Below, piece by piece: positions 27,855-59,567 of a stretch of 64,000 nucleotides of DNA (the first letter of the stretch is position 1; every line of letters begins with the position of its first letter). Below the pieces are notes generated by a model. The model did not search any database. It saw only the letters and a program-made list of their open reading frames with translations, and had not been told where the DNA came from. The position numbers and the translations under genes are program-made. The stretch is from positions 304-64,303 of the forward strand of contig DATDWZ010000008.1 of NCBI GenBank assembly GCA_036517295.1. Reading direction: 5' to 3'. Source of the stretch: Minisyncoccota bacterium. GTDB lineage: Bacteria; Patescibacteriota; Minisyncoccia; Phycocordibacterales; DATDWN01.

Positions 27855-27905
27855 AAAACAAAACGGCGCACCTTGTAAGGGTGCGCCCGAGTGAAACCGG
27901 CGTTA

Positions 27906-28118
27906 GGGGGAAGAATAAGCCAGACGAAGCACCGGCATGGCCCACGACGGTGTTGGGACGATGTAGAGAATCATAACCACCGACCCAAAACTGAGGTAGT
28001 ACCGATTCTGGACCGGGTCATACCTCGCACCCTCTCTCACCAACGCCTGACCGGCCAGTTCTTCCGAAGCGAAGAGGCCGTTCGGCCTCCCGAAAAAATC
28101 AATGCTGTACATCCGCAC
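27906..28118 (-). CDS. Small GC-rich hypothetical protein (71 aa) with SD
   Basis: GGAGG 5 nt upstream of ATG. A terminator hairpin ggcgcacc-ttgtaa-gggtgcgcc + T-tract lies at 27866-27895 on the minus strand. About 55% GC versus an AT-rich genome. Only moderate support for coding. Confidence 0.3.
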
Positions 28119-28172
28119 CTCCGAGAATAATGATACTGTATTCTCTCCGAAATAGAATCTTCCCAGGAGGAA

Positions 28173-29186
28173 TCAGCGCTTCGAAATTATCAATCGCTTG
28201 TATGTATCTAGATGTTCTAAAGCAATCCCTGTCCCCTTTGCCACACAATATAGAGGGTCTTTTGCCAAAACGGCTTTCACACCAGTCCGACGAAAAACAA
28301 GTTCGGGGAAATTGCGTAGTTGTGACGAACCGCCAGTCATTATGATTCCCTGATCAATAATATCTGACGAAAGTTCTGGTGGAGTTTCCTGCAAAACATC
28401 TTTTATTGCTTTTATCATTTCACGCAGGTCTTTCGATATCGCTTTGACTATCTCGTTTGTTTTTATTTCAACGCTTCGTGGAAGACCGGTCACAAAATCG
28501 CGACCTTTTATGGTCATTGAAAGTTCTTCATCGAGAGGAATGGCCGAGCCGATGTTTATTTTTATATCTTCCGCTGTCTTGTCGCCGATGCCGAGATTGA
28601 ATGTTTTCTTTATATAGTCGGTTATAGCATAATCGATTTTATTTCCTGCGCATTTAACCGATGTTGAAGAAACGATACCGCCGAGAGAAATCACCGCCAC
28701 GTCCGTCGTTCCTCCGCCGATATCAACGATCATGTGTCCCATTGCTTCGTGAATCGGAATCCCCGCGCCGATAGCGGCCAGAATCGGCTCTTTGACCACG
28801 TAGGCGTTTTTCGCGCCGGCTCGTATTGCCGCTTCTATAACCGCCCGCCGTTCGGTCGATGTCACGCCCGCAGGGACAGAAACAAGAACCTCGGGCTTTG
28901 TAAAATTCCATTTACCCAAAGCTTTATCCATGTAATATCGCAACATCGCTTCCGTAACACGATAATCAGCAATGACACCGTCTTTCATAGGACGATAAGC
29001 AATTATGTTTTCTGGAGTACGACCAATCATCTCCTTTGCTTCGATACCGATGGCCACAATACGATTGTCCTCTTCAGACACTGCCACAACGGATGGTTCA
29101 TTCAGAACTATCCCGCGACCAGGAACAAAGACCAGTATATTGGCCGTACCAAGGTCGATTCCGAGCTTTTTTGAGAAAATTCCCAT
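28173..29186 (-). CDS. MreB-like actin homolog (second paralog)
   Basis: GIDLGTANILVF, DIGGGTTD and IMTGGSSQLRN motifs. About 45% identical by eye to the mreB at 22449..23510. Confidence 0.85.
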   Translation of the reverse strand: MGIFSKKLGIDLGTANILVFVPGRGIVLNEPSVVAVSEEDNRIVAIGIEAKEMIGRTPENIIAYRPMKDGVIADYRVTEAMLRYYMDKALGKWNFTKPEVLVSVPAGVTSTERRAVIEAAIRAGAKNAYVVKEPILAAIGAGIPIHEAMGHMIVDIGGGTTDVAVISLGGIVSSTSVKCAGNKIDYAITDYIKKTFNLGIGDKTAEDIKINIGSAIPLDEELSMTIKGRDFVTGLPRSVEIKTNEIVKAISKDLREMIKAIKDVLQETPPELSSDIIDQGIIMTGGSSQLRNFPELVFRRTGVKAVLAKDPLYCVAKGTGIALEHLDTYKRLIISKR

Positions 29187-29206
29187 AATGGTATACTATA
29201 GCTGAT

Positions 29207-29971
29207 ATGCTGGATAATGCAAAAAGGGAAATCTTGAAACATAAAGAGCTTTACGCGACTATCTTGGTCGTTGTTTTAATTATTATTTCTGGTCTTGTCG
29301 GCTACAAAAAAGGCTACAGGTTCCAGAACAACTTTTTGATCGGAAAAGTTGGAACTTTATCTATAACCATACCGACAATACAGACAAATATTTTTATCGA
29401 CCAAAACCGTAAAATCACAACAATGAGCGACAACCAAACGGTGAGCATCCCACTATCCCCACGCAGTCACTCGGTCATTGTTTCTCACGACGGATACTTT
29501 CCTTGGAAGAAAGACTTTACTATGCCTAGTGGCGGAAACATCGTCCTCTCCCCTATTTTTGTAACCCAAAATGCAACGGGGCAAATTATTTTGAAAAACG
29601 ATCCAGAGTTTTGGGAAATCAGAAGCCGAATAATTCGCGACATCTTACCCACAAAAGAAAACCCCAGATTCTCTACAGATAATTTCGGAGCAATGTGGAT
29701 TGAAGACAACGCGGTAATAGTTAAGGTACAAGAAAAAATGTTCACGGTTATCCAGCCCGACACTGTAATAAAAAACCTCTACTTTTACAAAGACAGAAGC
29801 GACACCGTAGTTTTCTCAACAAATAATTCTATATATGTAATCGAGGTTAACAAAGAAGGTACCCAGAACTTCATACCCATATACAAAGGTAAAAACCCTT
29901 ACTTCATCGCCAGGGACATCGGCTTCATATATGTTCTCGATGGAGAGACTTTGATGCAGGTGATTATCTAA
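29207..29971 (+). CDS. Single-TM hypothetical protein with PEGA-like beta domain
   Basis: N-terminal TM. SHSVIVSHDGYFPWKKDF resembles a PEGA motif. Weak. Confidence 0.55.
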   Translation: MLDNAKREILKHKELYATILVVVLIIISGLVGYKKGYRFQNNFLIGKVGTLSITIPTIQTNIFIDQNRKITTMSDNQTVSIPLSPRSHSVIVSHDGYFPWKKDFTMPSGGNIVLSPIFVTQNATGQIILKNDPEFWEIRSRIIRDILPTKENPRFSTDNFGAMWIEDNAVIVKVQEKMFTVIQPDTVIKNLYFYKDRSDTVVFSTNNSIYVIEVNKEGTQNFIPIYKGKNPYFIARDIGFIYVLDGETLMQVII

Positions 29972-29974
29972 ATA

Positions 29975-30012
29975 AATTTTCAATTTCTAATTTTCAATTT
30001 TCAAAGATTTGA
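29975..30012. repeat. AT-rich intergenic repeat AATTTTCAATTTCTAATTTTCAATTTTCAAA
   Basis: Same core as 17837-17870. Confidence 0.55.
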
Positions 30013-30079
30013 CAGTGAGCGTAAAATTGACATAATAGCCTTAGATTGCGGGATAGAAACCCCATACGAGGAGAAGTCC

Positions 30080-30373
30080 ATGCTCACAGTAACACATGTG
30101 ATCTCAGTCGTTCTGATCCTTACCGGAGTGTTCACCTGGTTCAGAATCTCCAGACGGAACATCCCGCCGGCCACACCTTATCCCGTCGGTTCGGAAATCC
30201 TCCTCGGGAAGGAACTCGTAACGATCGTGGGGCACCGGCACTCCACCAGAAACGGAGACTTCCTGTACGATGTCGAGGGCGAAACGGGTGATCAGGCGGT
30301 GGCACGACATTCAGAAATGTCGTCTATGAAAAAAGTGCGGTCGTCTGGGCAAGAGAAGCAATGGCTACACTAG
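30080..30373 (+). CDS. Small GC-rich protein with N-terminal TM helix (97 aa)
   Basis: AGGAG 6 nt upstream of ATG 30080. The downstream hairpin caggaaaacc-tgccggc-ggttttcctg is a 10-bp perfect stem. About 58% GC. Confidence 0.45.
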   Translation: MLTVTHVISVVLILTGVFTWFRISRRNIPPATPYPVGSEILLGKELVTIVGHRHSTRNGDFLYDVEGETGDQAVARHSEMSSMKKVRSSGQEKQWLH

Positions 30374-30478
30374 ACTGGAAACGGTCCGCGTGTCTGCTAC
30401 GAGCGTGAGAAGCATCCCGGCACAATGGCCGCCGAGCAGGAAAACCTGCCGGCGGTTTTCCTGTTATAATGGAAAATC

Positions 30479-32386
30479 ATGCGAATTCTTACAGTCATAC
30501 CCATCAGCAAGGGCATATCCAAAGACACCCTGACCTACTTCACAAGCAAGGATGTGAGTACTGGCTCCATAGTCTCAATCCCCCTCCGAAACAAAACTAT
30601 TTACGGACTGGTAACCGCAAGCAAGGTGGCTCAGGAAATAAAATCCGAACTAAAATCGCTTTCGTACAGTATAAAAAAGATAGAGAAAATAGAGGCCAGA
30701 AACTTTTTGTCAGATGGTTTTATCGAGAGCGCACAGAAAATTGCAGATTATAACGCCGGAAGTGTCGGTGCCGTTTTGTCCGCTCTTATCCCGCGGACCA
30801 TACTGGAAGAAAGCGAGAAGTTGTCCTACACTCCACTGCAAACTCCAAAAAATACATTTCATGAAACCGTACTCCTACAATCGGATGATGAGGAAAGATA
30901 CGCAACATACAGAAGTCTCATACGTGAAGAATTTGCCAAGAATCGAAGCGTTTTTTTCTGTCTACCAACGACCGAGGATTTATTGAACGCCAAATTAACC
31001 CTAGAAAAAGGCATAGAAAAATATACATACATGTTACATTCCGGTTTGTCGAAAAAAGAACTCGTTGGTCTTTGGCAGAACATTATAGACGAACCACACC
31101 CACTGCTTATTATCGCCACAGGTTCTTTCTTGTCTCTACCCCGTCATGATCTCGGCACTATCATATTGGAAAAAGAAAGCTCGCGCGCATACAAAATGCA
31201 GGTGAGGCCGTTCATAGATATCCGTAGTGCCGTAGAAATAATAACCAAACAATTAAGTGTTCGCCTGGTGCTGGGTGATTTATTGCTTCGTACCGAAACG
31301 CTATGGGAAGAAAAGAATGGTCGATACGCGGAACTGTCCCCCCTCAAGTTCCGCTCACTTACAACGGCTGGATGCGAACTTGTCAGCATGCGCGTACCGC
31401 AGGATATGAAGAAAAAAGAGTTCACGATATTTAGTGATAAATTGAAAGATATGATTCGTGAAGCAAAAGAAAACAACGAACACACATTTTTATTTTGTGG
31501 ACGAAAAGGCCTGTACCCCGTAACTGTTTGTAGTGATTGTGGAACCGTTGTGGTGTGTAAAAATTGCAACGCCCCGGTGGTTTTGTACGGCCCTGCTTCG
31601 CGCAAGGCTACGCAGGGTAAGAGAAGCTTGTTCGTATGTAACCATTGTGGAGAGAGGCGTGATGCGGAAGAGTTGTGCGCGCATTGTGGAGGTTGGAGAC
31701 TGAATCCTATGGGACTGGGTATTGATAGGGTAGTCGAAGAAATTAAATCCATGATTCCAGAAGCTAATATAGTACTCATGGACAAAGACCATGTAACTAC
31801 CCATAAACAAGCGGTCAAGGCACGCGACCTTTTTTATTCCACCCCGGGCAGTGTTATGGTCGGCACAGAAATGGCCGCCACCTATCTTAATGAAAAAATA
31901 GAAAATGTGGCTGTCATTTCAATAGATTCATATTTTTCCATACCGGATTTTCAGGTGAATGAAAAAATATTCCATATTCTTTTGGGGCTGCGAGCTTTGG
32001 CAGAGAAAAATCTCCTGTTTCAGACGAGACAAGAGAATACCAAAATATTCGACTATGCTTTGCGCGGAAATCTTCTGGATTTTTATCGTGATGAAATAGA
32101 AGAGCGGGAGTCAATCGGCTATCCACCTTTTGTAACATATATAAAACTCAGTCTTGAAGGAGAAAAAAATGACATAAAAAAGGAAATGGCTAATATTGCT
32201 GACCAGATGAAACCGTACGAGGTCAATATCTTTGATGCATTCAATCCGGGCGGAAAATTAAAGTACACCATACACGGGCTTTTATCTCTCCCACACGGCA
32301 AATGGATGGATAAAATACTTTTGGATAAACTAAGAACGCTTCCACCGCATGTAGCGGTCAGAATAGACCCCGTCACGCTTTTGTGA
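30479..32386 (+). CDS. priA: Primosomal protein N' (PriA) homolog with degenerate helicase motifs I/II/III
   Basis: N-terminal 3'-DNA-binding domain. Cys-rich region CSDCGTVVVCKNCNAPVV...CNHCGERRDAEELCAHCG. C-terminal domain present. At the Walker A position it reads QSDDEERYATY instead of GxGKT. It reads LEKES instead of DEEH and VLGDLL instead of SAT. Confidence 0.8.
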   Translation: MRILTVIPISKGISKDTLTYFTSKDVSTGSIVSIPLRNKTIYGLVTASKVAQEIKSELKSLSYSIKKIEKIEARNFLSDGFIESAQKIADYNAGSVGAVLSALIPRTILEESEKLSYTPLQTPKNTFHETVLLQSDDEERYATYRSLIREEFAKNRSVFFCLPTTEDLLNAKLTLEKGIEKYTYMLHSGLSKKELVGLWQNIIDEPHPLLIIATGSFLSLPRHDLGTIILEKESSRAYKMQVRPFIDIRSAVEIITKQLSVRLVLGDLLLRTETLWEEKNGRYAELSPLKFRSLTTAGCELVSMRVPQDMKKKEFTIFSDKLKDMIREAKENNEHTFLFCGRKGLYPVTVCSDCGTVVVCKNCNAPVVLYGPASRKATQGKRSLFVCNHCGERRDAEELCAHCGGWRLNPMGLGIDRVVEEIKSMIPEANIVLMDKDHVTTHKQAVKARDLFYSTPGSVMVGTEMAATYLNEKIENVAVISIDSYFSIPDFQVNEKIFHILLGLRALAEKNLLFQTRQENTKIFDYALRGNLLDFYRDEIEERESIGYPPFVTYIKLSLEGEKNDIKKEMANIADQMKPYEVNIFDAFNPGGKLKYTIHGLLSLPHGKWMDKILLDKLRTLPPHVAVRIDPVTLL

Positions 32387-32539
32387 TAAATTAGGGGAAA
32401 TTGAGAATAATTCTTTCTCACCATATCCTTTTTGGAGTACGCACTTTTTTTGGTAAAAAAGATGCTCGAATCCTCGCGCCGACGGGCTTCTGAGCCTCCA
32501 AAAAGGACACGGCTCAAAGAATTATTCAATTTTATTTAA

Positions 32540-33082
32540 ATGAAAAAAATACTACAAAAAGACTCGCCCATATTACGACAGAAATCTCTGGAGGTTCCGG
32601 TGAAAGATATTAGTTCACCTAAAATCAAAAAGGTTATAAGGGAAATGAAGGAAGCGTTGAACTCCCAGGATGACGGCGTGGCTATCGCTGCTCCGCAGAT
32701 TGGGTATTCCCTTCGGATATTTATCGTCTCAAAGAAGGTCTTTGAGATAAATAAAGCAGTCAAGGAAAATCCTAGGGGGATTAGTTCAACTGGTCTTGTT
32801 TTTATAAATCCGGTCATAAAAAAAGTATCGAAGGAAAAGAAAGGATTGGAAGAAGGGTGTCTGTCGGTTAGATTTTTATACGGTAAGGTTGAGAGAAGTA
32901 ACAAAGCCACCATATCGGCATACAACGAGGCCGGTAAAAAATTCGAAAGGGGCGGAACGGGACTCTTGGCCCAAATATTCCAACACGAAGTGGATCACCT
33001 GAACGGAATCCTGTTTATCGACAAAGCAAAGAGTCTGGAAGAACTGCCACCTGGGCATGGTATAGATGAACCAAAAAAATAA
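32540..33082 (+). CDS. def: Peptide deformylase
   Basis: EGCLSV and QHEVDHLNG metal-binding motifs. Confidence 0.9.
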   Translation: MKKILQKDSPILRQKSLEVPVKDISSPKIKKVIREMKEALNSQDDGVAIAAPQIGYSLRIFIVSKKVFEINKAVKENPRGISSTGLVFINPVIKKVSKEKKGLEEGCLSVRFLYGKVERSNKATISAYNEAGKKFERGGTGLLAQIFQHEVDHLNGILFIDKAKSLEELPPGHGIDEPKK

Positions 33083-33946
33083 ATGTCGTCAAAAAATAAT
33101 TCTAGTTGGGCATTTTTCGGCACTTCACTATTTTCCGTAACTATATTGGATGAGTTAAGAAGCGCGGGCTTTGTCCCGAATCTTTTAGTCACGGTCCCGG
33201 ACAAGCCGAAAGGCAGAAAGCTAATACTGACCCCTTCGGATACAAAAATCTGGGCGGAGAAAAACGGTATTCCCGTCTTCCAACCGGAAAAATGGGACGA
33301 AGATGCGGTTTCAAAACTTTCAGATTACAGTTTTCGATTTTTTGTCGTAGCCTCGTATGGAAAAATTATTCCTCGACATATTTTGGATATTCCTAAGCAC
33401 GGCGCTTTGAATGTCCACCCCTCACTCCTACCAACACTACGAGGTCCATCCCCTATAGAGAGCGCCATATTGAAAGAAAGTGGGACCGGTGTGACAATCA
33501 TCAAGCTGGATAAAGAGATGGACCATGGGCCGATAATCGCCCAGGAAAAAGTACTGGTTGATGAGTGGCCTCCATACACCAAAGATCTCGAAAACAAACT
33601 GGGGATGGTCGGCGGACAAATACTGGTAAATGTAATCCCTGATTGGCTTCTCGGAAAAATAAAAGGGATCGAGCAAAATCACAGTCTTGCCACTTTTTGT
33701 AAAAAAATAGAAAAGGAAGATGGAAAAATAAATCTAGCCGACAGCCCTGAAGTAAATCTGAGAAAAATAAGAGCCTACCATATATGGCCGGGAGCTTTTT
33801 ATCTCCATCAATCTGGGAAAAGAGAAATCCGTGTAATCATAAAAAGGGCACATATAGAAAACGGTGCATTGATTTTGGATAGAGTATTGCCAGAGGGTAA
33901 GAAAGAAATGGGTTACAAAGATTTCCTTAGAGGATTAAGAAATTAG
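33083..33946 (+). CDS. fmt: Methionyl-tRNA formyltransferase
   Basis: Formyltransferase N-domain, HPSLLP motif, C-terminal domain. Adjacent to def. Confidence 0.9.
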   Translation: MSSKNNSSWAFFGTSLFSVTILDELRSAGFVPNLLVTVPDKPKGRKLILTPSDTKIWAEKNGIPVFQPEKWDEDAVSKLSDYSFRFFVVASYGKIIPRHILDIPKHGALNVHPSLLPTLRGPSPIESAILKESGTGVTIIKLDKEMDHGPIIAQEKVLVDEWPPYTKDLENKLGMVGGQILVNVIPDWLLGKIKGIEQNHSLATFCKKIEKEDGKINLADSPEVNLRKIRAYHIWPGAFYLHQSGKREIRVIIKRAHIENGALILDRVLPEGKKEMGYKDFLRGLRN

Positions 33947-34100
33947 TATTAATAATCATCTATTGACTGGAGAGAAAGATTTTCTGCGGTAGCTTCGGCT
34001 TTTTGCATAACATACAAAAGCACGATGGTTATTATAATGCAACCGAAGACAAAGATTACTAAAAAAGAATTGGCTTTTTGTTGCAATTTACCAATATTTA

Positions 34101-34478
34101 TCATCTCCTTCGTTTAAAGTTAATCCTTTTTAGTATCTCTTTCATCCTAATCGCTCCCTTCTTGAATAAAGTCTTGTATTTATTTTTTCGGGAAACTATG
34201 GCTCGTTCGGCCTCATCGCGAACTATATCTATGGCAGTATATAAATCTATTTCTTCCGCAACAACATATACCTGTTTATTCCCCGGTTGGAGTATGTTTA
34301 CCTCCGCCTTGAATATATCCCCCGATTTGTGATGCTTTGTAGTTCTACCTATCTCGACTTCACACAGAGTCCCATTTTTCACATTCAGAAACTTCTCCAG
34401 CGAAGATATTTTACTCGTTACATAATCCTTTATCGACGGTGTTAAGTCAAAATTTTTTGAGCGAATTTTAATTTGCAT
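34101..34478 (-). CDS. hpf: Ribosome hibernation promoting factor / RaiA family
   Basis: MQIKIRSKNFDLTPSIKDYVTSKISSLEKF... canonical HPF N-terminus. Confidence 0.85.
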   Translation of the reverse strand: MQIKIRSKNFDLTPSIKDYVTSKISSLEKFLNVKNGTLCEVEIGRTTKHHKSGDIFKAEVNILQPGNKQVYVVAEEIDLYTAIDIVRDEAERAIVSRKNKYKTLFKKGAIRMKEILKRINFKRRR

Positions 34479-34597
34479 ATACATACTATTATACACTGTC
34501 AAAAAAGGCCGACAAGGAATTGCATTACTTCATATTTTTGCTATTATCTCTAAGTGCATAAAAAATGCATATGTTAATTTGAAAACGGTTAGTAAGC

Positions 34598-34915
34598 TCC
34601 GGTGTAGCTCAGTGGTAGAGCAATCGCCTGTACCGAAAGGTTGTGCAGCTTCCTAAAGTAATTTAGGATGAAAAATGAGGTGAATTCGGGGAACCCCACA
34701 GTTTAATAGCTGAGGGCAATCCCGAGCCAAGTCCCGAGAGAAATCGAGGGAAAGGTGTAGAGACTATCTCGTAAGAGAGTAGCCGTCACGCAAGTGAGTA
34801 GGCGAAGCGCCCCACATCCCACTCAGAAATGAAGGATGATGATATAGTCCAGACCAAAGGCAACTTTGGATAAAATGTAAGCGATTGGTCGTAGGTTCGA
34901 TCCCTACCGCCGGAG
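34598..34915 (+). tRNA. tRNA-Asn(GUU) interrupted by a group I intron in the anticodon loop (exons 34598-34631 and 34878-34915; CCA not encoded)
   Basis: Acceptor tccggtg/cgccgga (U1-A72, G73 as in Asn). D-arm gctc-agtggta-gagc. Anticodon stem atcgc/gcgat with loop CUGU|UAA after splicing. T-arm gtagg-ttcgatc-cctac. 5' exon ends in U; intron ends in G. Confidence 0.7.
34632..34877 (+). ncRNA. Group I intron (IC3-like, tRNA anticodon-loop type), ~246 nt
   Basis: Conserved core strings AAUCCCGAGCCAAGUCCCGAGAG (cf. AAUCCUGAGCCAAGCCGAAG), AAGGUGUAGAGACUA (P7; cf. GGUGUAGAGACUA) and UCGGGGAACCCC. Ends with omega-G. Confidence 0.7.
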
Positions 34916-36562
34916 CAATGGTCGTGAAAGAGGTATAATTTGCCTCTGTCGTGGCTTTACCAGGGACTTTTTTGAGGTTCGAAAATGATTTCGAGGCTCC
35001 GGAAGTTCCACAAATGGTTGAGAACTCGTTTTTAACAAGGAACCGCCAGCCGTAAGGGTTTTGGTGGTTTTTTGTGCTTGTTCGAAAGTTTTCTCTTGAT
35101 CTAGTCGTTGCTGTACTCTTTCCGCAAGTTTCTGAACTGGAGTTTTCATTGTCGGAGTTACTTCTTTATCTGTAAGTATTAAGTTCGAAAAGATATGACT
35201 CAAAAGTAATCTTCTGTCTTCGGGAGACCTTTTCTCGTATATCTCTCTTGCTCTCCTAGCAAGGTCAATTATATTCAACCAGATTTCAAAATACTTTGCT
35301 TCTTCAGTCTTAATCCTACCAAGTTGTTCTATCACAGCATTTTGCTCTTCTATTATTTCCTTATTTTTTATCTCCCAACGCTCTCTTGTAATTCTCTCAT
35401 CAAGACGGTCATCATATACGTTATCTAAACGTCTCTGTAGTGAGCTGTAGCGGTCGTTAAGCCCCTTGATAGCACTTTCCTTGTACTCTATCTCTTGGGC
35501 GTGGTTTTCCTTAATTTTAACCTTAATTTGCTCTGCCTCTTCTGGTGTTATGGTTTCAAAGAACTTAAAGACTCCAAAGAGTTTGTCTTCGAGTTCCTTT
35601 TCCGGTGCATACTTTTTCTGAGAGCAGTTTCGGTAATGATTGCAGTGATAATAGACTATTCCTTTCTGTATTTCTGCCGTAATAGTCCCACTACATTCTC
35701 CACAGATAAACATTTTTCTAAATTGAAACTCGTGGCGGTTAAAGTGAGGAGTCTTTTTACCCATTCTAATATCTCTAACCTTTTCAAATAACTCTTTGGT
35801 GATAAGGGGTTCGTGAGACCCATTACTAAAAACCTCATCATTCCATTCCATCGCTCCATAGTAAAAAGGATTATTAAGAATACTCTCAATAACACTTTTT
35901 ACCATCTTCTTACCAGATCGAGTCCGAAATCCCTCTTTGTAAAACATCTCAATCACGGCTTTCATAGAATAGTTACCAGAACCATAAAGTTCAAACATCC
36001 TTTTTACGAATGGAGCGATTTCTTGATCTATTATGTGTGTTTTATGTCCCTTCTCACCAATGGTTTTATATCCGAGTGGAGGTTTTGTTGGTAACCACCC
36101 TTGAGCAAGTTTTTCTTTCTGACCCTTTTTTACCTCTTCAGATAGATTTGAAATAAACTTCTTAGCTAGAACTATTTCAATATCCCAGCGAAACTTTTCG
36201 TCAGATTTAGCGTTCTTATGGATAATCAGATTTTGCTTAACAAAATGTATTTGCCTAGAAACATCTCCCTCAACCCAATCGTTAATCGCTAGTGCTTCCT
36301 TGAAGTTGCGAGTAAGTCTATCTACTTTCTCACAGAGTAATATATTTACTTTATTTTTTTCCAAAAACTCTAACATTTCTGCAAAAACCACTCGTTGTTT
36401 TGCACCACTTGCTGACTCTGCAATCGAAAAGACTTTTATCATCTGAAAATCTTTTCGCTGAGCATATTCCTCCATAAGTTTAACCTGTGATGGCAAAGAA
36501 TAACCTGTTTCTTCTTGTTCTTTTGATGAAACTCTACAATAACTAACTGCTTTTATTTTCAT
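34904..36562 (-). CDS. Large serine recombinase (resolvase catalytic domain + recombinase domain + zinc ribbon + coiled coil)
   Basis: YCRVSSKEQ catalytic Ser motif. Recombinase domain. CGECSG...YYHC zinc ribbon. Long coiled coil. The 3' end overlaps the tRNA-Asn 3' end. Confidence 0.85.
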   Translation of the reverse strand: MKIKAVSYCRVSSKEQEETGYSLPSQVKLMEEYAQRKDFQMIKVFSIAESASGAKQRVVFAEMLEFLEKNKVNILLCEKVDRLTRNFKEALAINDWVEGDVSRQIHFVKQNLIIHKNAKSDEKFRWDIEIVLAKKFISNLSEEVKKGQKEKLAQGWLPTKPPLGYKTIGEKGHKTHIIDQEIAPFVKRMFELYGSGNYSMKAVIEMFYKEGFRTRSGKKMVKSVIESILNNPFYYGAMEWNDEVFSNGSHEPLITKELFEKVRDIRMGKKTPHFNRHEFQFRKMFICGECSGTITAEIQKGIVYYHCNHYRNCSQKKYAPEKELEDKLFGVFKFFETITPEEAEQIKVKIKENHAQEIEYKESAIKGLNDRYSSLQRRLDNVYDDRLDERITRERWEIKNKEIIEEQNAVIEQLGRIKTEEAKYFEIWLNIIDLARRAREIYEKRSPEDRRLLLSHIFSNLILTDKEVTPTMKTPVQKLAERVQQRLDQEKTFEQAQKTTKTLTAGGSLLKTSSQPFVELPEPRNHFRTSKKSLVKPRQRQIIPLSRPLLRR

Positions 36563-36600
36563 ATATATATTTATATTATCACTTTTTAATAATCAGCTAC

Positions 36601-36770
36601 AGTCCGACTTCTACCTTCTGATACTATCAACAGGTAGTGGACTCTTATGTATCAGATAACTATGAGCGAGTTTTGTGATAACCTTTTCGTAAATTATTTT
36701 ACGTTTTATATATCCAACCCCGTTCTGAACTATTCCGATACTCTTCAGATGGCAGGGCGAGAAGTCGGAC
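36601..36770. repeat. Long-range inverted repeat agtccgacttct ... agaagtcggac(a) flanking ~150 nt immediately upstream of the recombinase gene (candidate att/recombination site or structured RNA)
   Basis: 11/12-bp inverted repeat at 36601-36612 and 36760-36770. Confidence 0.3.
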
Positions 36771-36818
36771 ACTCGTTTTCCCTGCTTTCGCAAGAGTACC
36801 TGAACACCCCTTATAGGA

Positions 36819-37091
36819 CTAAACGTCCTGTTTTAAAGAACAAGTTTTACCTGATGTCCTTATAGCAGGTTTGTTATCTAAATTGTCTTCCGTTTGCGAC
36901 ACGGGCTCTCTGGGGTTGGTCAAAGAGCTTGTGTCGATAACCGAATATTCGTTTTTCTTATCTTCGTAATCAAACCTTGATAACAAATCAAAGAAAGACG
37001 CCAACCCATTTATTTCTTCTCCGCTCAAAATTGAACTAACAGATTTTTCTGTATCAACTTCATTATTAAAGTTTTGAGATTTCACTGTCAT
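36819..37091 (-). CDS. Hypothetical acidic protein (90 aa)
   Basis: ORF only. Lies between the recombinase and the RM genes. Confidence 0.3.
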   Translation of the reverse strand: MTVKSQNFNNEVDTEKSVSSILSGEEINGLASFFDLLSRFDYEDKKNEYSVIDTSSLTNPREPVSQTEDNLDNKPAIRTSGKTCSLKQDV

Positions 37092-37099
37092 TTCAATTT

Positions 37100-37140
37100 T
37101 TGATAAACAAAAACACCACCCTTTTAGGTGGTTAATTTAC
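37100..37140 (-). terminator. Intrinsic terminator downstream of res (accacc-cttttag-ggtggt + U-tract on minus strand)
   Basis: Hairpin plus TTTTTGTTT on the minus strand. Confidence 0.5.
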
Positions 37141-37287
37141 GTACAGCAAAAGAGCCCCTTGATTGGGTAACTGTATCGGATTATTTAGTAGAGCGAAGTT
37201 TCCATCGGAAACTCACAGTAGCTTGATAACTTAATTATACCCTTTCACAACAGAATAGCAATCACATCTTATCCACTTATTCTATAC

Positions 37288-39699
37288 CTAGAACAAGTCC
37301 TCAAACGGTCTCCATTCCTTACTGTCATTTACTGACTGTCTTTCCCTAAAGGAATACTTCGGACTATCGTTGTAATACCAAAGTCCTGCTTCTTGTACCG
37401 CAATACCACCTACAAACTTTTTACCAAATTGCTTGAGCTTAGCTTGCAATGATTTTGCCTTATCAGCGGTATCTGTACTTGTTGCGGTATCTCCTTTCTT
37501 CGTATCAAAAATACCTATACGACCATCAGAGAAGCGAATAATCCAGTCAGGATAAAACAGGTTTTCTTCTTTTGTTGATGAGTTTGTATATTTAATGCCT
37601 AGATAGTTTTTTCCTTGATCGCCGTTTTTGAACCACCAATCAATCTTCCCTTTTTTCTTTTCCAAGTACTCGACAAAAGCAATTTCATTTTTGCGTCCAT
37701 TATAATCTTCTAATAAGTAGAACTTGTCTAATACACATAACTTTTGAGGGACAACCTTATAATCTTCAGGATACCGATATTCTTCTTGTATAGTAAAAGT
37801 ATATGCTTGCTGTTCTTCTATCTTCTTTTTCTTGTCAGTGAGTAAACTATCTGAAATTGGTTTGTAAGCTCTAAGTGCCTTTGTTATTGCCGGACGAAAC
37901 TTACTTTCAGTACCTTTACGAATATCTTTAATAAATATCTTGTACCAAAAAATATGGTCATCAAGTAAAACTGTCTTAAACCAAACACGAAGTGCTTGTT
38001 TTAACACTGACCAAGAACGAGCTATGTTAGAGTATCTAGCTTTGTCGTCTTCTTGTTCTTTCAAGATTTGGTAACAAAGATAGTTGAATGTTTTTTCAAC
38101 ATCACTCACTGACATTTCAAGAGAAACATCACTACCTTTCTTTTTGAAATCAAAAGCAAGGTTATCGTAGTCCTCAAAACGAGCATTGGCTATAACTTCA
38201 TTTACTAAAGTATTACTAAGATCCAGCCCTGCCTTTTTTAATTTTATCTCTGATTTACCTAAAATATCTTTCTCACTAATACCAAAATGCTTGTTTAATT
38301 CTATTCTAAAAACTTTTTGGAACTCTGAAGATACACGAATATCTCCGTAATCTAAGCGAGAAATATAATCAGAAGGCAACTCTATATTACTTATTCCTTT
38401 TTTTATATGTGCAGTTTCTGTAAGAGCTTTATTCGCAGGGTTTTGATCTGGTATTACTACTTCCTTACGCTTATAGTTTGTATATAGATAACCCAATCGG
38501 AGGTTAGGATTATTTTTGTAATCTTCTTTTGCTTGAGGTTCAGGCATTCGCAAAATACGCCCAACAGTTTGAGTATAAAAAGTATTTGATTGTATCTCTC
38601 TAAACATCACAAGTACCGATGCACGAGGACAGTCCCAACCATTACCAGCAGTTTGTTTGAAGATCAGAAAATCGTGTTCATCGTCATTTTCTTCTAGCCC
38701 CTTCGGTTTATCTTGTCCCTTAGACCATTTTGCAATTTTATGTTCAGGTACTTTCATTCTAACAAGATAATCTGTAACAATTTTTTCCTTTGTCTGTTCG
38801 CCTTTTTCTATTAACTTACTGTCGTCATTCGGTATTTGTATTAACATTAAAGGATTTATTTCTTTCCCGAGTGCCTTAAGTTCAGCTTTTAATTCTTCTC
38901 TTTTATTTATTCCATTTTCAAGAAGAACTCTATCAAGGTCTTTACCGGACATACCCTTAAAATCTTCATCTGTTTGAGTAACAATAGCTTCTTTTATTAA
39001 ACCTTGATCAACCACTTCTTTTCTTGGGACTTCATAATAACTACCAAGACGGCGAGCATCCAGTTCGTCATCTCGGTTTGGTGTAGCTGTAATGTGAAGA
39101 ATTACCTTAGGATCAATCATCTCGATAATATCCTTTGCGAGCCTCGTGTCTTTGTTTTTATGGGCTTCATCAATAACTAAAATAATCTGCCTGCCATCAG
39201 CGTGTGTTTGCTCAATTACATCCTCAAAGTATTTACCCGTTTCTTTTATCCACTCTTCATCTTCAGGACGGCGAAGTAATCTTGTTTCTGCACTTTTAGC
39301 AGTAACTTTTTGCCAATTCAAAAACAAAATATCATTTTGATATAGTTTGCCTTGATTTATATCTGCAACAGTCAAAGCTCTGTTTTCAAGCATATTTTCA
39401 AAATACTCAAGAAACTTACCTTTACTTTGCATAGCCAAATCATCACTGAAAGTAATCCAAATAAATGCCTTGTCTTCTTTCCATTGTGGTAAATGATTAA
39501 GGCCACGAATAAAGAGTGAGGTCATAAAGGTTTTACCGCTACCAGTTGGCGATTTGAAAACAATAGGTAATTGTCTGCCTTGTTGTTTCCATATCGCTAC
39601 AAACATATCTGTAAGATTTTCTACAGCAGTTTTTTGGAATTGTAATGGATTAAATGTTTTCATATTAAATAATATTGTATATTTGCTTGTATACCTCAA
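37288..39699 (-). CDS. res: Type III restriction enzyme Res subunit (SF2 helicase + C-terminal PD-(D/E)xK endonuclease)
   Basis: KSPTGSGKTF (motif I), LVIDEAHKN (DEAH), ITATPN (motif III). C-terminal PDWIIRF...IGIFDTKKG nuclease motif. Confidence 0.85.
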   Translation of the reverse strand: MRYTSKYTILFNMKTFNPLQFQKTAVENLTDMFVAIWKQQGRQLPIVFKSPTGSGKTFMTSLFIRGLNHLPQWKEDKAFIWITFSDDLAMQSKGKFLEYFENMLENRALTVADINQGKLYQNDILFLNWQKVTAKSAETRLLRRPEDEEWIKETGKYFEDVIEQTHADGRQIILVIDEAHKNKDTRLAKDIIEMIDPKVILHITATPNRDDELDARRLGSYYEVPRKEVVDQGLIKEAIVTQTDEDFKGMSGKDLDRVLLENGINKREELKAELKALGKEINPLMLIQIPNDDSKLIEKGEQTKEKIVTDYLVRMKVPEHKIAKWSKGQDKPKGLEENDDEHDFLIFKQTAGNGWDCPRASVLVMFREIQSNTFYTQTVGRILRMPEPQAKEDYKNNPNLRLGYLYTNYKRKEVVIPDQNPANKALTETAHIKKGISNIELPSDYISRLDYGDIRVSSEFQKVFRIELNKHFGISEKDILGKSEIKLKKAGLDLSNTLVNEVIANARFEDYDNLAFDFKKKGSDVSLEMSVSDVEKTFNYLCYQILKEQEDDKARYSNIARSWSVLKQALRVWFKTVLLDDHIFWYKIFIKDIRKGTESKFRPAITKALRAYKPISDSLLTDKKKKIEEQQAYTFTIQEEYRYPEDYKVVPQKLCVLDKFYLLEDYNGRKNEIAFVEYLEKKKGKIDWWFKNGDQGKNYLGIKYTNSSTKEENLFYPDWIIRFSDGRIGIFDTKKGDTATSTDTADKAKSLQAKLKQFGKKFVGGIAVQEAGLWYYNDSPKYSFRERQSVNDSKEWRPFEDLF

Positions 39700-41350: not shown

Positions 41351-41352
41351 AT

Positions 41353-43271: not shown

Positions 43272-43274
43272 AAT

Positions 43275-45500: not shown

Positions 45501-45636
45501 TTTAATCCTGCTCCAATTCAGAATTTGGATACCCTAAATAAAAAGTTCGTAGGGGTTATAAAACCAGTATCAACTGGAAAGCCTAGGCGTTGATCATTTG
45601 ATATTTTTCGGAATGTTTAATGTATAATTAAACTCT

Positions 45637-46439: not shown

Positions 46440-46444
46440 AACTT

Positions 46445-46981
46445 ATGAAAATATATATCATCAGACACGGACTCACTAACTATAATAAAATAGGCAGAAT
46501 AAATAGCCGAGGAGTAGATGAGCCTTTGGCCCCTGAAGGAGTAGCGCAAGCGGAAGAGACATCGCAAAATATGCCGGAAGGCATCGTAAAAATATACGCA
46601 TCCCCCCTACTAAGAACTAGGCAGACCGCCGATATCCTGAATAAAGACCTTGGACTGGAGATCGAGTACGCGCCCGAACTTATGGAAGTCGATTTTGGTC
46701 TGTTCACGGACAGAACTTGGGTGGAGATCGAGGAAGAGTATAAAGGGTTTCGTCGGTCTTTCACCGACCAAACATACGACTTCACCTCTCACAATGGAGA
46801 AAGTATTACGGATGTGGTGGGACGAGCAAGAAAGATGATCGAGAAGATCAAGAAAGATCATGTGAACGAGAGAGTTCTCCTCGTCACCCACGGAGGCGTC
46901 GTGCGGGCTATTCATAATATTTATAATAATGAAATATTGGGAGAAACAAAAAACGCCACGATTTACGAAATTGAGGTATAA
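46445..46981 (+). CDS. Histidine phosphatase family protein (phosphoglycerate mutase-like)
   Basis: IIRHGLTNYN RHG motif. C-terminal VTHGGVVRA. Confidence 0.8.
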   Translation: MKIYIIRHGLTNYNKIGRINSRGVDEPLAPEGVAQAEETSQNMPEGIVKIYASPLLRTRQTADILNKDLGLEIEYAPELMEVDFGLFTDRTWVEIEEEYKGFRRSFTDQTYDFTSHNGESITDVVGRARKMIEKIKKDHVNERVLLVTHGGVVRAIHNIYNNEILGETKNATIYEIEV

Positions 46982-47009
46982 AGAGTGGTTGTGGAAAATA
47001 TTTAATCAC

Positions 47010-47650: not shown

Positions 47651-47800
47651 ATGTTAACAACAATCGCTATTATCCTCGTTATATTATGGCTTCTCGGTGT
47701 GGTGTCTTCGTTTACTCTTGGAGGATTCATACATATCCTTTTGGTAATAGCAGTCGTGGTAATACTCTTAAGGGTAATTCGCGGAGACAGACTCCTCTAG
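47651..47800 (+). CDS. lmo0937-family small membrane protein (49 aa)
   Basis: MLTTIAIILVILWLLGVVSSFTLGGFIHILLVIAVVVILLRVIRGDRLL matches the lmo0937-family pattern (LWLLG...GG.IH.LLVIA.V.L..R). Not in the supplied ORF track because it is under 60 aa. Confidence 0.6.
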   Translation: MLTTIAIILVILWLLGVVSSFTLGGFIHILLVIAVVVILLRVIRGDRLL

Positions 47801-47883
47801 ACCCTATTTAATCGTGTTAATATTAACTAACTTGCACTTTCTATGTATCGTGGTATTATAGTGGACGGAGAAAAGGAGACCTT

Positions 47884-48222
47884 ATGTATCTAGACATGAT
47901 AAGACTGAATCAAACGCAGGTGGTGCAACACCCCTGCGGGCCGGAGATCCGTCACAGGTACCTGACACATCTGTCAAACGGAACTACGGTGGCATTGTGG
48001 TCTGTGTCGGCAGACTCCTGTTTCGGCCCAGAGACACGAAACTATGACATCGTGGTCACCGTCCTTGAGGGTATGGGTATCGTCCTCATCGGCGACGAAG
48101 AGGAGCCGTACCACCCGGGCATGACCACCCACATCCCGGCCGGCACGAAGGCCTGCATCAAGCAAGCCGGCACGGATACGACCGTGCTACAGTGCAACTT
48201 CCCCACCCTCAGGATTGAGTAA
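47884..48222 (+). CDS. Cupin-domain small protein (GC-rich)
   Basis: AAGGAG 6 nt upstream. G.E..H.H...VLEGMG...G...PYHPGMTTHIPAG cupin_2 pattern. Terminator follows. Confidence 0.65.
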   Translation: MYLDMIRLNQTQVVQHPCGPEIRHRYLTHLSNGTTVALWSVSADSCFGPETRNYDIVVTVLEGMGIVLIGDEEEPYHPGMTTHIPAGTKACIKQAGTDTTVLQCNFPTLRIE

Positions 48223-48249
48223 GAGGGGTAAGTCCCCGCCCGTCAACGA

Positions 48250-48290
48250 ACCCGCCCCTGTGCTGGTAGTCGGGGGCGGGTTTTGTTTTA
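48250..48290 (+). terminator. Intrinsic terminator (cccgcccc ... ggggcggg + TTTTGTTTT)
   Basis: GC stem plus U-tract after the cupin stop. Confidence 0.6.
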
Positions 48291-55938: not shown

Positions 55939-56010
55939 GAATATTAGATTTGAGAAAAGGCATTGGCCACGCGTGGAACTGCACGCGACCAATACCTTTT
56001 TCAAAAAGAG

Positions 56011-56345
56011 CTACCTCTTCCGGCCACCAAGTCGGCGGTAGTGACACCGCCTGCACTCTTGCCGTGGGGGTGAGATGATTTTGAGAAGCCGATGGGCCTC
56101 TCTCACTCGCCTCTCCTCTTCGGCCTTGTGCAGTTCACGAAGAGCATCGACGAGCTTCACAAGATCACCAATTCTGACTTGGTGAGCCTTGCTGTGCTCG
56201 ACGAGGCAGATCGCAAACATAGGAACCCCCGCTATCTGCGCAAGGTGATCACGGCTTATGTGACCCCTCCAACTCCTCATCTCCTTTCCGAAAATGAAAC
56301 ATGCGCGCCTTCTTCCGCCTTTCACTACCGCCCCTACTTTCATAG
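56011..56345 (-). CDS. GC-rich hypothetical protein (~110 aa), possible HTH
   Basis: AGGAG 4 nt upstream of ATG (MKVGAVVKGG...). The region is about 58% GC. HLAQIAGVPMFAICLVEHSK may be an HTH. Low support. Confidence 0.3.
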
Positions 56346-56422
56346 CGCTCCTGGGGAACTTGGAGTGACCATTCACTCTGTCTATAATCTAATACTATAT
56401 AAAGCAATATGCAAACATAGAC

Positions 56423-57187
56423 TTATGCACAGTCTTCGGTGCTATACTCCCCCACTTTTACCCTTTTTATATGAAAAGTTGTAGCTTTTACGCCTAAACT
56501 CTCGGCCAAATCAGAAACGAACTGCCTAACATAAAACCCGCTCGAAACAGTTATGGAAATTTTATCAATTAGAAAGATGTCAAAGAGACTCTTTGACATA
56601 AGTTCCTGCCATTGTTTTATTATTTCCTCTTGCCTGAAATCACCGGAAACGGAATTTATATTTCTTACGATATATCGTAAGAGATCATCTTTTACAATCT
56701 CTCGTCGTGATACAAAATCCACGGAATGAACCTCAACCTCATGACTCGGTATTTCAATCTCATTCAATTTCCCTTCCCTAGCCCATTGAAAAAGTGGCTT
56801 ACTGTCCACAGGCTTCGACGAATATGCCGGATACTTTTGTTCAAACTTACCAACAAACTTTTTTAACTCTTTTTTTAAATCTTTCCTAGACACTAAATGC
56901 TGACTACTAACCCCTACTCGACCTAAAAGGTCGAGTGTATCCGTCTCAAATCCCCATAAAATCTCAAACTCATATATTTTTGGTAACCCTAAATACTCAT
57001 CCTTTTTCTTTATCTCCTCACCTGACAAAACTAAAAGTAGCCCTTCTGCCATAGGATCCAGTCGCCCGGCATATGTCATTACCACATCCGAATACTCCGG
57101 ATTCTCCTTTTTGAACCTTAAAATTACCTCGTTTGGTGTCTCTCCAATATTTTTATACAGCAGATGGACACCACTATTTTTTTTCAT
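56423..57187 (-). CDS. truB: tRNA pseudouridine(55) synthase TruB
   Basis: AGRLDPMAEGLLLVL (catalytic Asp motif), HLLYKNIGETP N-terminus. Confidence 0.8.
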   Translation of the reverse strand: MKKNSGVHLLYKNIGETPNEVILRFKKENPEYSDVVMTYAGRLDPMAEGLLLVLSGEEIKKKDEYLGLPKIYEFEILWGFETDTLDLLGRVGVSSQHLVSRKDLKKELKKFVGKFEQKYPAYSSKPVDSKPLFQWAREGKLNEIEIPSHEVEVHSVDFVSRREIVKDDLLRYIVRNINSVSGDFRQEEIIKQWQELMSKSLFDIFLIDKISITVSSGFYVRQFVSDLAESLGVKATTFHIKRVKVGEYSTEDCA

Positions 57188-58723: not shown

Positions 58724-58765
58724 AGACCACTCACGTCCGCTAAATTTCTTTCTCATAATATTTTT

Positions 58766-58838
58766 CAGAGAGACGCGGATAAATTTTTGCTAAAATTTTC
58801 CTTGAGTTCGCTCCGTCGAGCCTCACTAGTCTCTCTTC
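58766..58838. repeat. Copy 2 of the ~73-nt structured repeat (reverse orientation relative to copy 1)
   Basis: See 23555-23627. The hairpin gctc-gacg-gagc replaces cgcg-tcgg-cgcg. Confidence 0.5.
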
Positions 58839-58954
58839 AAAATATTATTCGACAAAATTTAGCTTAGTGGTTATTTTAAATTTTTTGTACGACTTTATTT
58901 TCTTATGAGTAACGCGAATTAGAAAATAAGAAGTGCCCTTGTGGTATTAAAAAA

Positions 58955-58979
58955 GGCGGAGGTTTGCAGTCCCTCCGCC
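58955..58979 (-). terminator. Intrinsic terminator (ggcggagg-tttgcagtc-cctccgcc) with U-tract on minus strand; A-tract on plus (bidirectional-capable)
   Basis: 8-bp GC stem. TTTTTTA follows on the minus strand. Confidence 0.6.
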
Positions 58980-59101
58980 TTTGCCCGTCGCCGACGCCAT
59001 CTGGGTTGGGCTCTCCGGCCCGCTTCCTCACCAGTGACGCTCCGCGCCGTCTTACCTCTTTTGGCCCACCATACTTCGTACGCAGGGCCGGCGCCCGCCG
59101 A

Positions 59102-59269
59102 TCAGCCGCCCGCCGTCGCGTCGGAGTGCGTGCCGTGGCTGTTGGCCGCCGTCGCCGCGCGCGTCGTGTGGTTGGTCGGAATCATCGTGCCGGCGCCCTT
59201 GGGCGTCGCGTTGATGTCGAAGTTATCCAGTCCGGCGCTCGCGCCGTGATCGCTCCGCATTCGTCGCAT
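59102..59269 (-). CDS. Very GC-rich (~70%) small gene: 55-aa Gly/Ala/Thr/His-rich hydrophilic protein with own promoter, SD and terminator (could alternatively be an sRNA)
   Basis: GAGGTGA sits 2 nt before ATG. The product is MRRMRSDHGASAGLDNFDINATPKGAGTMIPTNHTTRAATAANSHGTHSDATAGG. A promoter lies upstream and a terminator downstream. Confidence 0.4.
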   Translation of the reverse strand: MRRMRSDHGASAGLDNFDINATPKGAGTMIPTNHTTRAATAANSHGTHSDATAGG

Positions 59270-59321
59270 GGTCACCTCGTTGGCTCTTGGGTCGAAACAA
59301 CAATCAGTAACAGAAGACTAA

Positions 59322-59350
59322 ACTTTACCATACCCCTCTCTTGCCGTCAA
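59322..59350 (-). promoter_or_regulatory. Sigma70-like promoter TTGACG-N17-TAAAGT with upstream AT-rich UP-like tract, driving the 59269..59102 gene
   Basis: -35 TTGACG (59345-59350, minus strand). 17-nt spacer. -10 TAAAGT (59322-59327). AT-rich tract 59351-59380. Confidence 0.45.
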
Positions 59351-59567
59351 GTATTTTATATTGTTAAATATGAGAATCGCAAAAATATGGCTTAAAATAA
59401 CGAAAATCCGCAGGAGGGCGTTACTCCCACGGATGTCTATCTCGTCATGTACTGTTCGGTCAACCTTTGCACTGCCCTTGAGGCGTGTGTGCGTATGACC
59501 TACCGTTTACTGTCCTTGCCTCCCCATTGCCTAAACGCCGGGTGGGGGTAAAAAAATTGTAGCATAT

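Follow-up and report, generated by a model that had tools for sequence, protein, structure and literature searches.

The 64,000-nt window analysed here (positions 304 to 64,303 of the forward strand of contig DATDWZ010000008.1, assembly GCA_036517295.1, from a Minisyncoccota bacterium) carries small GC-rich islets at seven places, which on balance are best read as two kinds of small self-contained transcription unit, eight in all, and not as one element, situated in variable gaps of a syntenic Paceibacteria chromosome. Five of the units, referred to as class A, appear to be small protein genes with products of 55–112 aa, each possessing its own Shine-Dalgarno (SD) site and its own terminator, and three, referred to as class B, are candidate non-coding RNAs (ncRNAs) of about 160–290 nt with a near-consensus sigma-70 promoter and an intrinsic terminator; both assignments are made from the sequence and are held with slightly more confidence than doubt. 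An initial annotation of the window had treated the two kinds together. Judging by the neighbouring genes and 160 related loci (designated below with L-numbers), the window belongs to Patescibacteria, class Paceibacteria, near Zambryskibacteria and Taylorbacteria, and the sample names suggest groundwater as the source.

Elevated GC was confirmed at all seven places listed in the initial annotation, the islet means being, from left to right, 0.538, 0.531, 0.547, 0.545, 0.570, 0.518 and 0.584 against 0.403 (40.3%) for the 10–64 kb part of the window. The range of 55–70% GC given there is true of local peaks only, with the best 150-nt windows reaching 0.59–0.74, and is overstated for the islets as wholes (0.52–0.58). 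When compared with all equal-length windows of 10.2–64 kb, the islets have z values of 2.2–3.7, and the same GC is reached at 0.2–2.9% of positions. Windows as GC-rich as the islets also lie within two core genes, RRF (26631–27053) and mreB (28630–28962), and far larger GC-rich blocks occupy 1–4566, 8245–10127 and the region from 63794 onward; neither these nor the intron-containing tRNA gene at 34598–34917 had been listed. The joins between the islets and their flanks are reproduced with 99.93–100% identity in MEGAHIT, ANAN16, JGI and Logan assemblies of different samples, so the islets are not assembly artefacts; chimeric assembly, a concern raised in the initial annotation, is excluded in this way by assembly comparison and not by read coverage. 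The idea that the islets are copies of one repeat or mobile element was rejected, since an all-against-all BLASTN comparison gave chance matches of ≤20 nt only.

By composition the genes fall into three classes, namely core genes, with a mean third-position GC content (GC3) of 0.42±0.05 in 38 core open reading frames (ORFs) and a maximum of 0.55 in RRF, the genes of an AT-rich mobile element (0.26, eight genes), and a GC-rich set (0.60–0.74) at 300–1214 (with an HTH_3 domain), 1670–2806 (AAA_21), 2926–4074 and 8627–10069 (ParB/KorB-like). The islet ORFs have GC3 values of 0.59–0.88, i.e. 3–9 standard deviations above the core mean, and by composition the ORF-bearing islets look foreign; they share their compositional class with the larger GC-rich blocks that carry the HTH_3, AAA_21 and ParB/KorB-like domains.

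The split into two classes is based on three-base periodicity of GC, which is present in the five ORFs, hereafter i27 (p = 0.02), i30 (p = 0.003), i47 (p = 0.0005), i55 (p = 0.018) and i58 (p = 0.002), each named after its approximate position in kb, and absent from the three ORF-less units i15a (p = 0.99), i15b (p = 0.38) and i25 (p = 0.38). Codon positions are ordered in the canonical way (GC3>GC1>GC2) in i27, i30 and i47, as GC1>GC3>GC2 in i55 and as GC3>GC2>GC1 in i58, and an SD site is located 3–7 nt ahead of the start of each of the five ORFs. Fold stability relative to shuffled sequences gives z values of −3.2 for i15a, −3.0 for i15b and −4.8 for i25, and −1.6 for the i58 mRNA; promoters matching the consensus at 11–12 of 12 positions precede i15a, i25 and i30. 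The initial annotation had offered structured RNA genes as an alternative for the islets, and with no periodicity and stable folds this proved right for three units (two at 15.3–15.8 kb and one at 25.0–25.25 kb). The clean intrinsic terminators reported there at the ends of several islets are also present and can be read directly.

None of the islets reached the Rfam 15 gathering score for any family in a scan of the whole window, tmRNA, RNase P RNA, SRP RNA, 6S RNA and T-box included, and so the known RNAs once considered as an explanation of the GC (tmRNA, RNase P) do not account for the three RNA candidates. The only gathering-score matches in the window, a group I intron at 34630–34870 and LOOT RNA at 42138–42257, are both outside the islets. 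Permissive E-value scans of 13.0–18.2, 24.9–30.6 and 47–60 kb and of two RNA islets taken alone gave nothing credible, and ARAGORN found no tmRNA.

The gene orders fmt-def-priA-h254-mreB-holB-RRF-M50-proS and bipA-truB-hisS-exo-(pap2)-dsbA-uvrD are kept across dozens of species, and seven of the eight units sit in gaps of these two backbones or in the LysRS-mraZ junction, the exception being the cupin unit i47, for which no synteny with the surroundings in relatives could be established. In relatives these gaps measure from about 10 bp to over 3 kb. Islet DNA has no match in the 160 related loci, even where MreB is 96% identical, and six-frame comparisons of the islets with the relatives' loci were negative as well. 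Short gaps are AT-rich, 0.10 below the GC of their loci, and gaps of 200–1500 bp are GC-elevated in 66–82% of cases in AT-rich relatives. Large GC-rich cargo found in these gaps in some relatives includes a 2.7-kb segment at 0.54 GC with SPFH-like and membrane ORFs in L006 and a 700-aa flotillin-like ORF in L024. Distant in-clade relatives were found for three of the five ORFs (i27, i55 and i47), in two cases (i27 and i55) at the same position, and in both of these positional families the window copy is the GC-richest, exceeding its genome by 0.16 versus 0.02–0.12 in the others. Searches of PHROGs, Pfam and NCBIfam with all five ORFs gave nothing except a sub-threshold Cupin_2 match for i47.

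The unit i27 (27865..28122, minus strand) contains an ORF at 27903–28112 coding for a 69-aa protein with a hydrophobic C-terminal half, and is recognised by its SD, terminator and periodicity. The initial annotation had correctly seen here an ORF with a strong SD and had placed it at 27906–28118; the coordinates are 27903–28118 if translation starts at GTG (71 aa) or, better, 27903–28112 with the ATG located 3 nt after the SD GGAGGTG (28122–28116). The terminator at 27887–27865 has 8 pairs, 7 of them G-C, GC1/2/3 values are 0.54/0.44/0.67, and the gene is probably co-transcribed with mreB. A hidden Markov model (HMM) built from seven ORFs located at the same position, after mreB, in six other species had the i27 ORF as its sole further match with E<1 among 13,790 six-frame ORFs (E 2.9e-4, 20.7 bits), and BLASTP gave 32% identity over 56 aa with the gap ORF of L014. 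A jackhmmer search from the single L014 seed did not reach the i27 ORF, which was reached by the seven-sequence profile. Through this weak link i27 may be placed in an unnamed clade-specific family of small proteins positioned after mreB.

The unit i30 (30009..30462, plus strand) codes for a 97-aa orphan protein at 30080–30373, exactly where an ORF with a strong SD had been annotated. It has a promoter TTGACA-16-(TG)CATAAT at 30009–30036 matching at 11 of 12 positions, an SD GAGGAG at 30069–30074, a terminator at about 30427–30462 immediately before priA, and periodicity with GC1/2/3 of 0.56/0.42/0.64. The hydrophobic segment at the N-terminus of the product is probably membrane-spanning. There was no Pfam, PHROG or NCBIfam match, and a full HMMER search of 1.84 billion representatives returned, besides the protein itself (99% identity), only a marginal match to P0003, which was rejected as junk, being a translated tandem repeat. 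Upstream of the i30 promoter, at 29975–30000, there is an AT-rich tandem repeat AATTTTCAATTT, which recurs at 17840–17865 and 17939–17957 in the gap at 17.8–17.96 kb, where both orientations are represented.

The unit i47 (47832..48290, plus strand) contains the ORF 47884–48222, the coordinates of which, together with its own SD and terminator, had been given exactly in the initial annotation. The 112-aa product is cupin-like. Expression signals comprise an extended −10 element TGgTATTAT ending at 47859 with a weak −35 element TTGCAC, an SD AAGGAGA and a terminator at 48251–48289, and the periodic ORF has GC1/2/3 of 0.55/0.42/0.73. The earlier cupin call stands in part: the protein matches Pfam PF07883 Cupin_2 at 23.1 bits (E 6e-5), under the gathering cut-off of 27.2, and aligns with a relative's Cupin_2 protein (L115:2713–3111, itself scoring 43.5 bits) with 26% identity over 80 aa and a pairwise E of 1e-6, by which distant relative the call is supported. 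Its best PDB match is the small cupin 1v70 (TTHA0104), a weak one with E 0.049. The AlphaFold2 model is all-beta, and with a predicted local distance difference test score (pLDDT) of 41 it was too poor to justify a fold search; a search of 5.8 billion proteins returned only near-identical self copies. Upstream of i47, the gene at 47651–47800 is a clear member of the lmo0937 family, as had been annotated (NF033488, 62.9 bits against a cut-off of 30; also Pfam DUF5670, 53.7 bits against 23.5).

The unit i55 (55952..56352, minus strand) is found downstream of truB, in convergent orientation to bipA. Its ORF codes for a 110-aa basic helical protein and extends over 56011–56343, so the ORF with an SD annotated at 56011–56345 exists and only its end coordinate has to be corrected. 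The SD is AGGAG, the terminator consists of a hairpin at 55993–55962 followed by a U-run, and the ORF is periodic with GC1/2/3 of 0.63/0.44/0.59. When a profile was built from the ORFs in the bipA-hisS gaps of L097 and L107, its strongest match beyond its own members was i55 (E 9e-4 among 13,790 ORFs), with E 0.006 in the reciprocal phmmer search, and all three ORFs share strand, size and a C-terminal EA(Y/H)RLL..SP(R/P) motif. Since the L097 ORF at this position matches HTH_3 at 33 bits, i55, itself under the curated threshold, is probably a diverged XRE-type helix-turn-helix (HTH) protein (HTH_3/HTH_31). Direct Pfam search of i55 gave no family even at E≤5, pairwise comparison with the gap ORF of L114 showed no similarity, Foldseek found nothing below E 1 for the all-helical AlphaFold2 model (pLDDT 56), and only near-identical self copies were found among 5.8 billion proteins.

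The unit i58 (58945..59350, minus strand) contains an orphan ORF at 59102–59269 and is supported by a promoter, an SD, a terminator and periodicity. The features reported for it initially were largely found as described, including the promoter TTGACG-17-TAAAGT (59350–59322, with a TG extension), the SD GAGGTGA (59278–59272), the hydrophilic 55-aa G/A/T/H-rich product and the frame staying open after the TGA, which continues for 60 codons. TGA is an ordinary stop in this genome, terminating 6 of 37 core genes, and the 55-aa ORF therefore does end there. The ORF has a GC of 0.70 and a GC3 of 0.88; the GC-rich 3′ untranslated region (UTR) at 58983–59101 has no periodicity (p = 0.59). The terminator is located at 58952–58982 and is followed by U6, and calling it bidirectional was generous, as a good U-run is present on the minus strand only. 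Protein searches with the 55-aa ORF, even with its read-through extension, found no homologue.

Public gene calls place plus-strand ORFs at two of these units, a 130-aa ORF at 56092–56484 in i55, the codon-position GC of which is weaker than that of the opposite strand, and a 143-aa antisense ORF at 58964–59395 in i58, the codon-position GC of which is not coding-like; both are probably miscalls. Near i58, at 58742–58840, there is also a palindromic element of about 99 nt with 32-nt arms that are 78% complementary, a second copy of which (about 23550–23647, 87% identity) lies in the opposite orientation, both being intergenic after a gene; the element resembles a small repetitive extragenic palindrome (REP) or miniature inverted-repeat transposable element (MITE).

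Two of the RNA candidates share the 748-bp LysRS-mraZ gap, in which no gene was called in four assemblies. The unit i15a (15525..15849 with its promoter, minus strand) would be transcribed into an RNA of about 288 nt (15525–15812) from a perfect TTGACA-17-TGnTATAAT promoter at 15849–15821 (12 of 12 positions) and ends in a GC hairpin with a U-run near 15566–15527. Its fold has an energy of −125 kcal/mol, a stability reached by 0 of 200 shuffled sequences, and its longest ORF is ≤53 aa. The unit i15b (15325..15520 with its promoter, minus strand) corresponds to a candidate RNA of about 160 nt (15325–15490), which is suggested by its fold and repeats: an 11-bp closing stem is formed by a perfect 11-nt inverted repeat (15474–15484 with 15371–15381) and a palindrome at 15339–15362 makes the terminator hairpin. 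The promoter-like sequence is TTGATT (15520–15515)-16-TGcTATTCT with the −10 box at 15498–15493. In relatives, the place of i15a and i15b in the LysRS-mraZ gap is taken by a small basic ORF (L022, L027) or by a terminator only (L036).

Directly downstream, i15b abuts the mraZ promoter and its GTGGG boxes. The GTGGG direct repeats with a −10 box upstream of mraZ are conserved (15255–15300 in the window, 20780–20830 in L027 and about 13410–13480 in L062); these repeats, which we take to be the known MraZ operator repeats, would mark the native edge of the i15 insert.

The unit i25 (25043..25283 with its promoter, minus strand) is located in the M50-proS gap, and its promoter and fold point to an RNA of about 205 nt (25043–25252). 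The promoter TTGACA-16-TATAGT at 25283–25256 matches at 11 of 12 positions, the predicted structure (−82 kcal/mol) is made up of three helical domains, with a terminator at about 25101–25050 followed by U7, and ORFs do not exceed 37 aa. Promoter-like sites for proS follow downstream, one being TTGACC-17-TAATAT at 25044–25016 and the other an extended −10 element TGCTAGAAT beside the start. In the M50-proS gap of five relatives (L015, L016, L020, L021 and L042) there are likewise GC-rich, non-periodic and mostly significantly structured units, each with its own promoter and with a terminator that abuts the conserved proS promoter. The GC content of class B can be explained by its helices, and we infer that these units act as trans-acting or insulating small RNAs.

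Two further observations concern the same gap. A perfect 12-nt inverted repeat (24906–24917/24993–25004) has one arm immediately before the probable start of proS (ATG near 24906) and the other 75 nt upstream, between the two promoter-like sites, and it is possible that it forms a hairpin sequestering the start site. In three relatives (L015 13697–13818, L016 6767–6903 and L024 14963–15077) the gap contains a closed-stem RNA of about 90 nt with a terminator, the stem of which reads 5′ GGGAGAGG..UUGAC.. / ..GAACAA..CCUCUCCC 3′, and which looks like an undescribed small RNA family. A shared family of i15b and these closed-stem RNAs was considered and rejected: a sequence HMM recovered only its three seeds, and RNAalifold gave a 9-bp closing stem only, with one compensatory pair. 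Thus neither in sequence nor in structure are they linked to the RNAs of the window.

Under the reading of eight self-contained units in variable gaps, class A would consist of accessory small proteins, namely a regulator, proteins of the envelope or membrane and a small barrel that binds a ligand, the high GC3 of which may come from alleles imported by exchange from a GC-richer gene pool, with the gaps turning over by replacement. A survey of species-specific orphan genes found their GC to follow genome GC nearly one-to-one, with lower values in phage-like or de novo candidates (Genome Res 2024, PMC11293555), so the high GC3 of class A is a real anomaly; a horizontal origin of these alleles is suggested by composition alone. 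The i27 and i55 genes would code for strongly diverged members of small-protein families that are specific to the clade and keep the same position in related species. As these two ORFs are members of such families, and as no out-of-clade relative was found for any of the five, the pool would most likely be other Paceibacteria, of which sampled species reach 59% GC, or their mobile elements and not an unrelated host. The suggestion of the initial annotation that the islets were recently acquired from a high-GC donor, possibly the host or partner, is thus upheld as far as composition and the lack of islet DNA in relatives are concerned, and is not supported with regard to the donor, none having been identified. 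No support was found for a host or partner, and "recent" is not shown either, the nearest relatives being already only about 55–77% identical in flanking proteins.

That all the islets come from an unrelated high-GC organism, although it would agree with their GC3, their absence from the 160 related loci and the presence of larger GC-rich blocks with mobile or defence-type domains in the same window, and although a GC excess of 15–30 points is unusual for native genes given that orphans match genome GC (PMC11293555), seems to us quite unlikely. Four of the ORFs, searched against 5.8 or 1.8 billion proteins as the initial annotation had advised, gave near-identical copies from the same population or nothing, and PHROGs and NCBIfam gave no homologue for any of the five. 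DNA comparisons were negative for i15 and the 20-kb stretch 27000–47000 against phages and for i58 against plasmids, i15 and i58 being the only two islets compared individually in this way. The families of i27 and i55 occupy the same position in AT-rich relatives, which speaks against their having been captured from an unrelated high-GC organism or from a host, three of the islets are non-coding with their GC explained by structure, and neither adjoining integrases nor convincing flanking repeats were found. The positional families of i27 and i55 fit an explanation without any transfer, in which native fast-evolving small genes had their GC raised in place, for example by selection tied to high expression or by GC-biased repair or recombination in gaps prone to recombination. 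The relatives' family members are themselves somewhat GC-richer than their genomes, the window copies being the extreme, longer gaps are GC-elevated clade-wide, and the highest core GC3 belongs to the highly expressed RRF. We nevertheless hold this explanation to be unlikely, as GC3 values of 0.73–0.88 far exceed that of any core gene, i30, i47 and i58 have no positional homologues, and i55 is far more diverged from its L097 and L107 counterparts than these are from each other (53% identity) despite the hisS genes of both loci being 68–76% identical to that of the window, which fits replacement better than steady drift.

The view that all the islets are structured RNAs, with the ORFs being chance open frames, draws on the scarcity of stop codons in GC-rich sequence, on the overlapping ORFs present on both strands of every islet, on the disagreement of gene callers about the strand of i55 and i58, and on the three islets that do resemble RNAs. 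It is made very improbable by the codon-phase periodicity that is found in the five ORFs and in none of the ORF-less units, by the well-placed SD before each ORF, by the protein-level links of i27, i55 and i47, and by the i58 transcript, which folds no better than shuffled sequences. Equally hard to accept is that the islets are decaying pseudogene stubs of larger GC-rich cassettes comparable to the 1–3 kb inserts of relatives. Larger GC-rich genes do occupy the same gaps in L006 and L024, the i58 frame is open well beyond its stop, and there are GC-rich tails downstream of PAP2 (59400–59567); but no six-frame similarity connects the islets with the larger inserts, every promoter, SD, start, stop and terminator is intact, with correct spacing between them, the i58 3′ UTR lacks periodicity, and AT-biased decay should have erased the GC signal.

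Several observations weigh against the reading of eight units with alleles exchanged within the clade. The family links of i27 and i55 are weak (E 3e-4 and 9e-4 among 13,790 ORFs) with no direct Pfam match, and i30 and i58 have no homologue at all. In i58 the antisense frame shares its third positions with the 55-aa ORF, so that the two are not told apart by periodicity, and the minus strand is favoured only by the expression signals. The three ORF variants seen in near-identical copies (H24Y, S88L and R28S) are all non-synonymous, giving no sign of purifying selection, though the population is nearly clonal and a sample of three variants is uninformative. For the RNA candidates there are no homologues and hence no support from covariation. 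No donor was found, and the sampled GC-rich Paceibacteria had no matches. There are no integrases or recombinases beside any islet, and target-site duplications or terminal repeats were represented only by short AT-rich repeats at chance level, among them one weak 14-nt AT-rich inverted pair bracketing i55.

Streamlined free-living bacteria have been described as having flexible genomic islets, or hypervariable gaps, between their syntenic core genes. The units of the window are similar to them in being small strain- or species-specific segments at fixed junctions, with variable content and collinear flanks. They differ in that the inserts are only 0.2–0.5 kb long, each consisting of one gene with a promoter or terminator of its own. 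Their GC exceeds that of the backbone, although acquired DNA as a rule is AT-richer, and no fewer than two of the gaps retain a diverged form of one gene family instead of unrelated cargo. GC-rich ncRNA genes stand out in AT-rich genomes, which is the basis of composition-based ncRNA screens, and i15a, i15b and i25 resemble the RNAs found in this manner, being GC-rich, ORF-less and structured with their own promoter and terminator; the background, however, is only moderately AT-rich here (40% GC), and the three match no known family and lack sequence conservation even in species whose MreB is 96% identical. Like the species-specific orphan genes surveyed earlier (PMC11293555), i30 and i58 are short and have no detectable homologues, whereas GC3 in the present case is 0.17–0.46 above that of core genes.

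Unlike the islets, an AT-rich 10.2-kb element in the same window (34917–45147, about 33% GC) possesses a serine recombinase and a tRNA target. It is inserted exactly at the 3′ end of a tRNA gene (34598–34917, plus strand) which is split in the anticodon loop by the group I intron (Rfam RF00028, 75.6 bits); the anticodon is GUU (Asn), the exons having been read by eye, and the gene is absent from the ARAGORN output. The element carries a large serine recombinase (34904–36562), a ResIII/SWI2-SNF2 helicase (37288–39699) and the LOOT RNA. L002, an assembly of the same population, is without this element and shows a 4-nt overlap at the junction.

The GC-rich blocks 1–4566 and 8245–10127 (GC 0.54–0.57) contain genes coding for an HTH_3 protein, an AAA_21 protein (AbiEii-like ATPase), an ORF of 382 aa with no assigned function and a 480-aa ParB/KorB-like protein, which has only 25–30% identity to plasmid partition proteins, and flank a gene of native composition coding for a 1159-aa LamG/HYR/CBM96/NHL surface protein. 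The block at the right end (GC 0.52–0.70) extends from 63794 to the end of the window and continues in L086 at 15700–16772; a 239-aa ORF beyond it has no Pfam match. A LysRS-like class II aminoacyl-tRNA synthetase of 631 aa (15917–17812) has a C-terminal DUF2000 domain (15917–16360), and its homologues in relatives align over residues 1–483 only and appear to be without this domain.

The case is one of small fast-turnover accessory genes in a candidate phyla radiation (CPR) genome, which is modestly interesting and reveals no new kind of system or mechanism. In such a genome, composition together with codon-phase periodicity tells small orphan protein genes and unannotated small-RNA genes cleanly apart, where automatic gene callers skipped the islets or chose the wrong strand, as with the antisense ORF in i58, and at least two of the apparent orphans would be extremely diverged versions of genes whose position is the same from species to species. 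As a broader and still doubtful possibility, fixed gaps in this Paceibacteria family may hold position-keeping small genes, for both proteins and RNAs, that diverge or are replaced until they look like orphans, with alleles systematically GC-richer than the core genome. If so, small regulators, envelope proteins and small RNAs would be subject to a clade-wide cassette-like exchange or diversification with a possible tie to the symbiotic lifestyle, and there would be at least three new structured RNA classes. Accessory DNA usually has an AT bias, to which such GC-rich gap content runs opposite, and the unusual tendency of the variable gaps in this clade to be GC-richer than the backbone could help to explain how small accessory functions are acquired and renewed in CPR bacteria.

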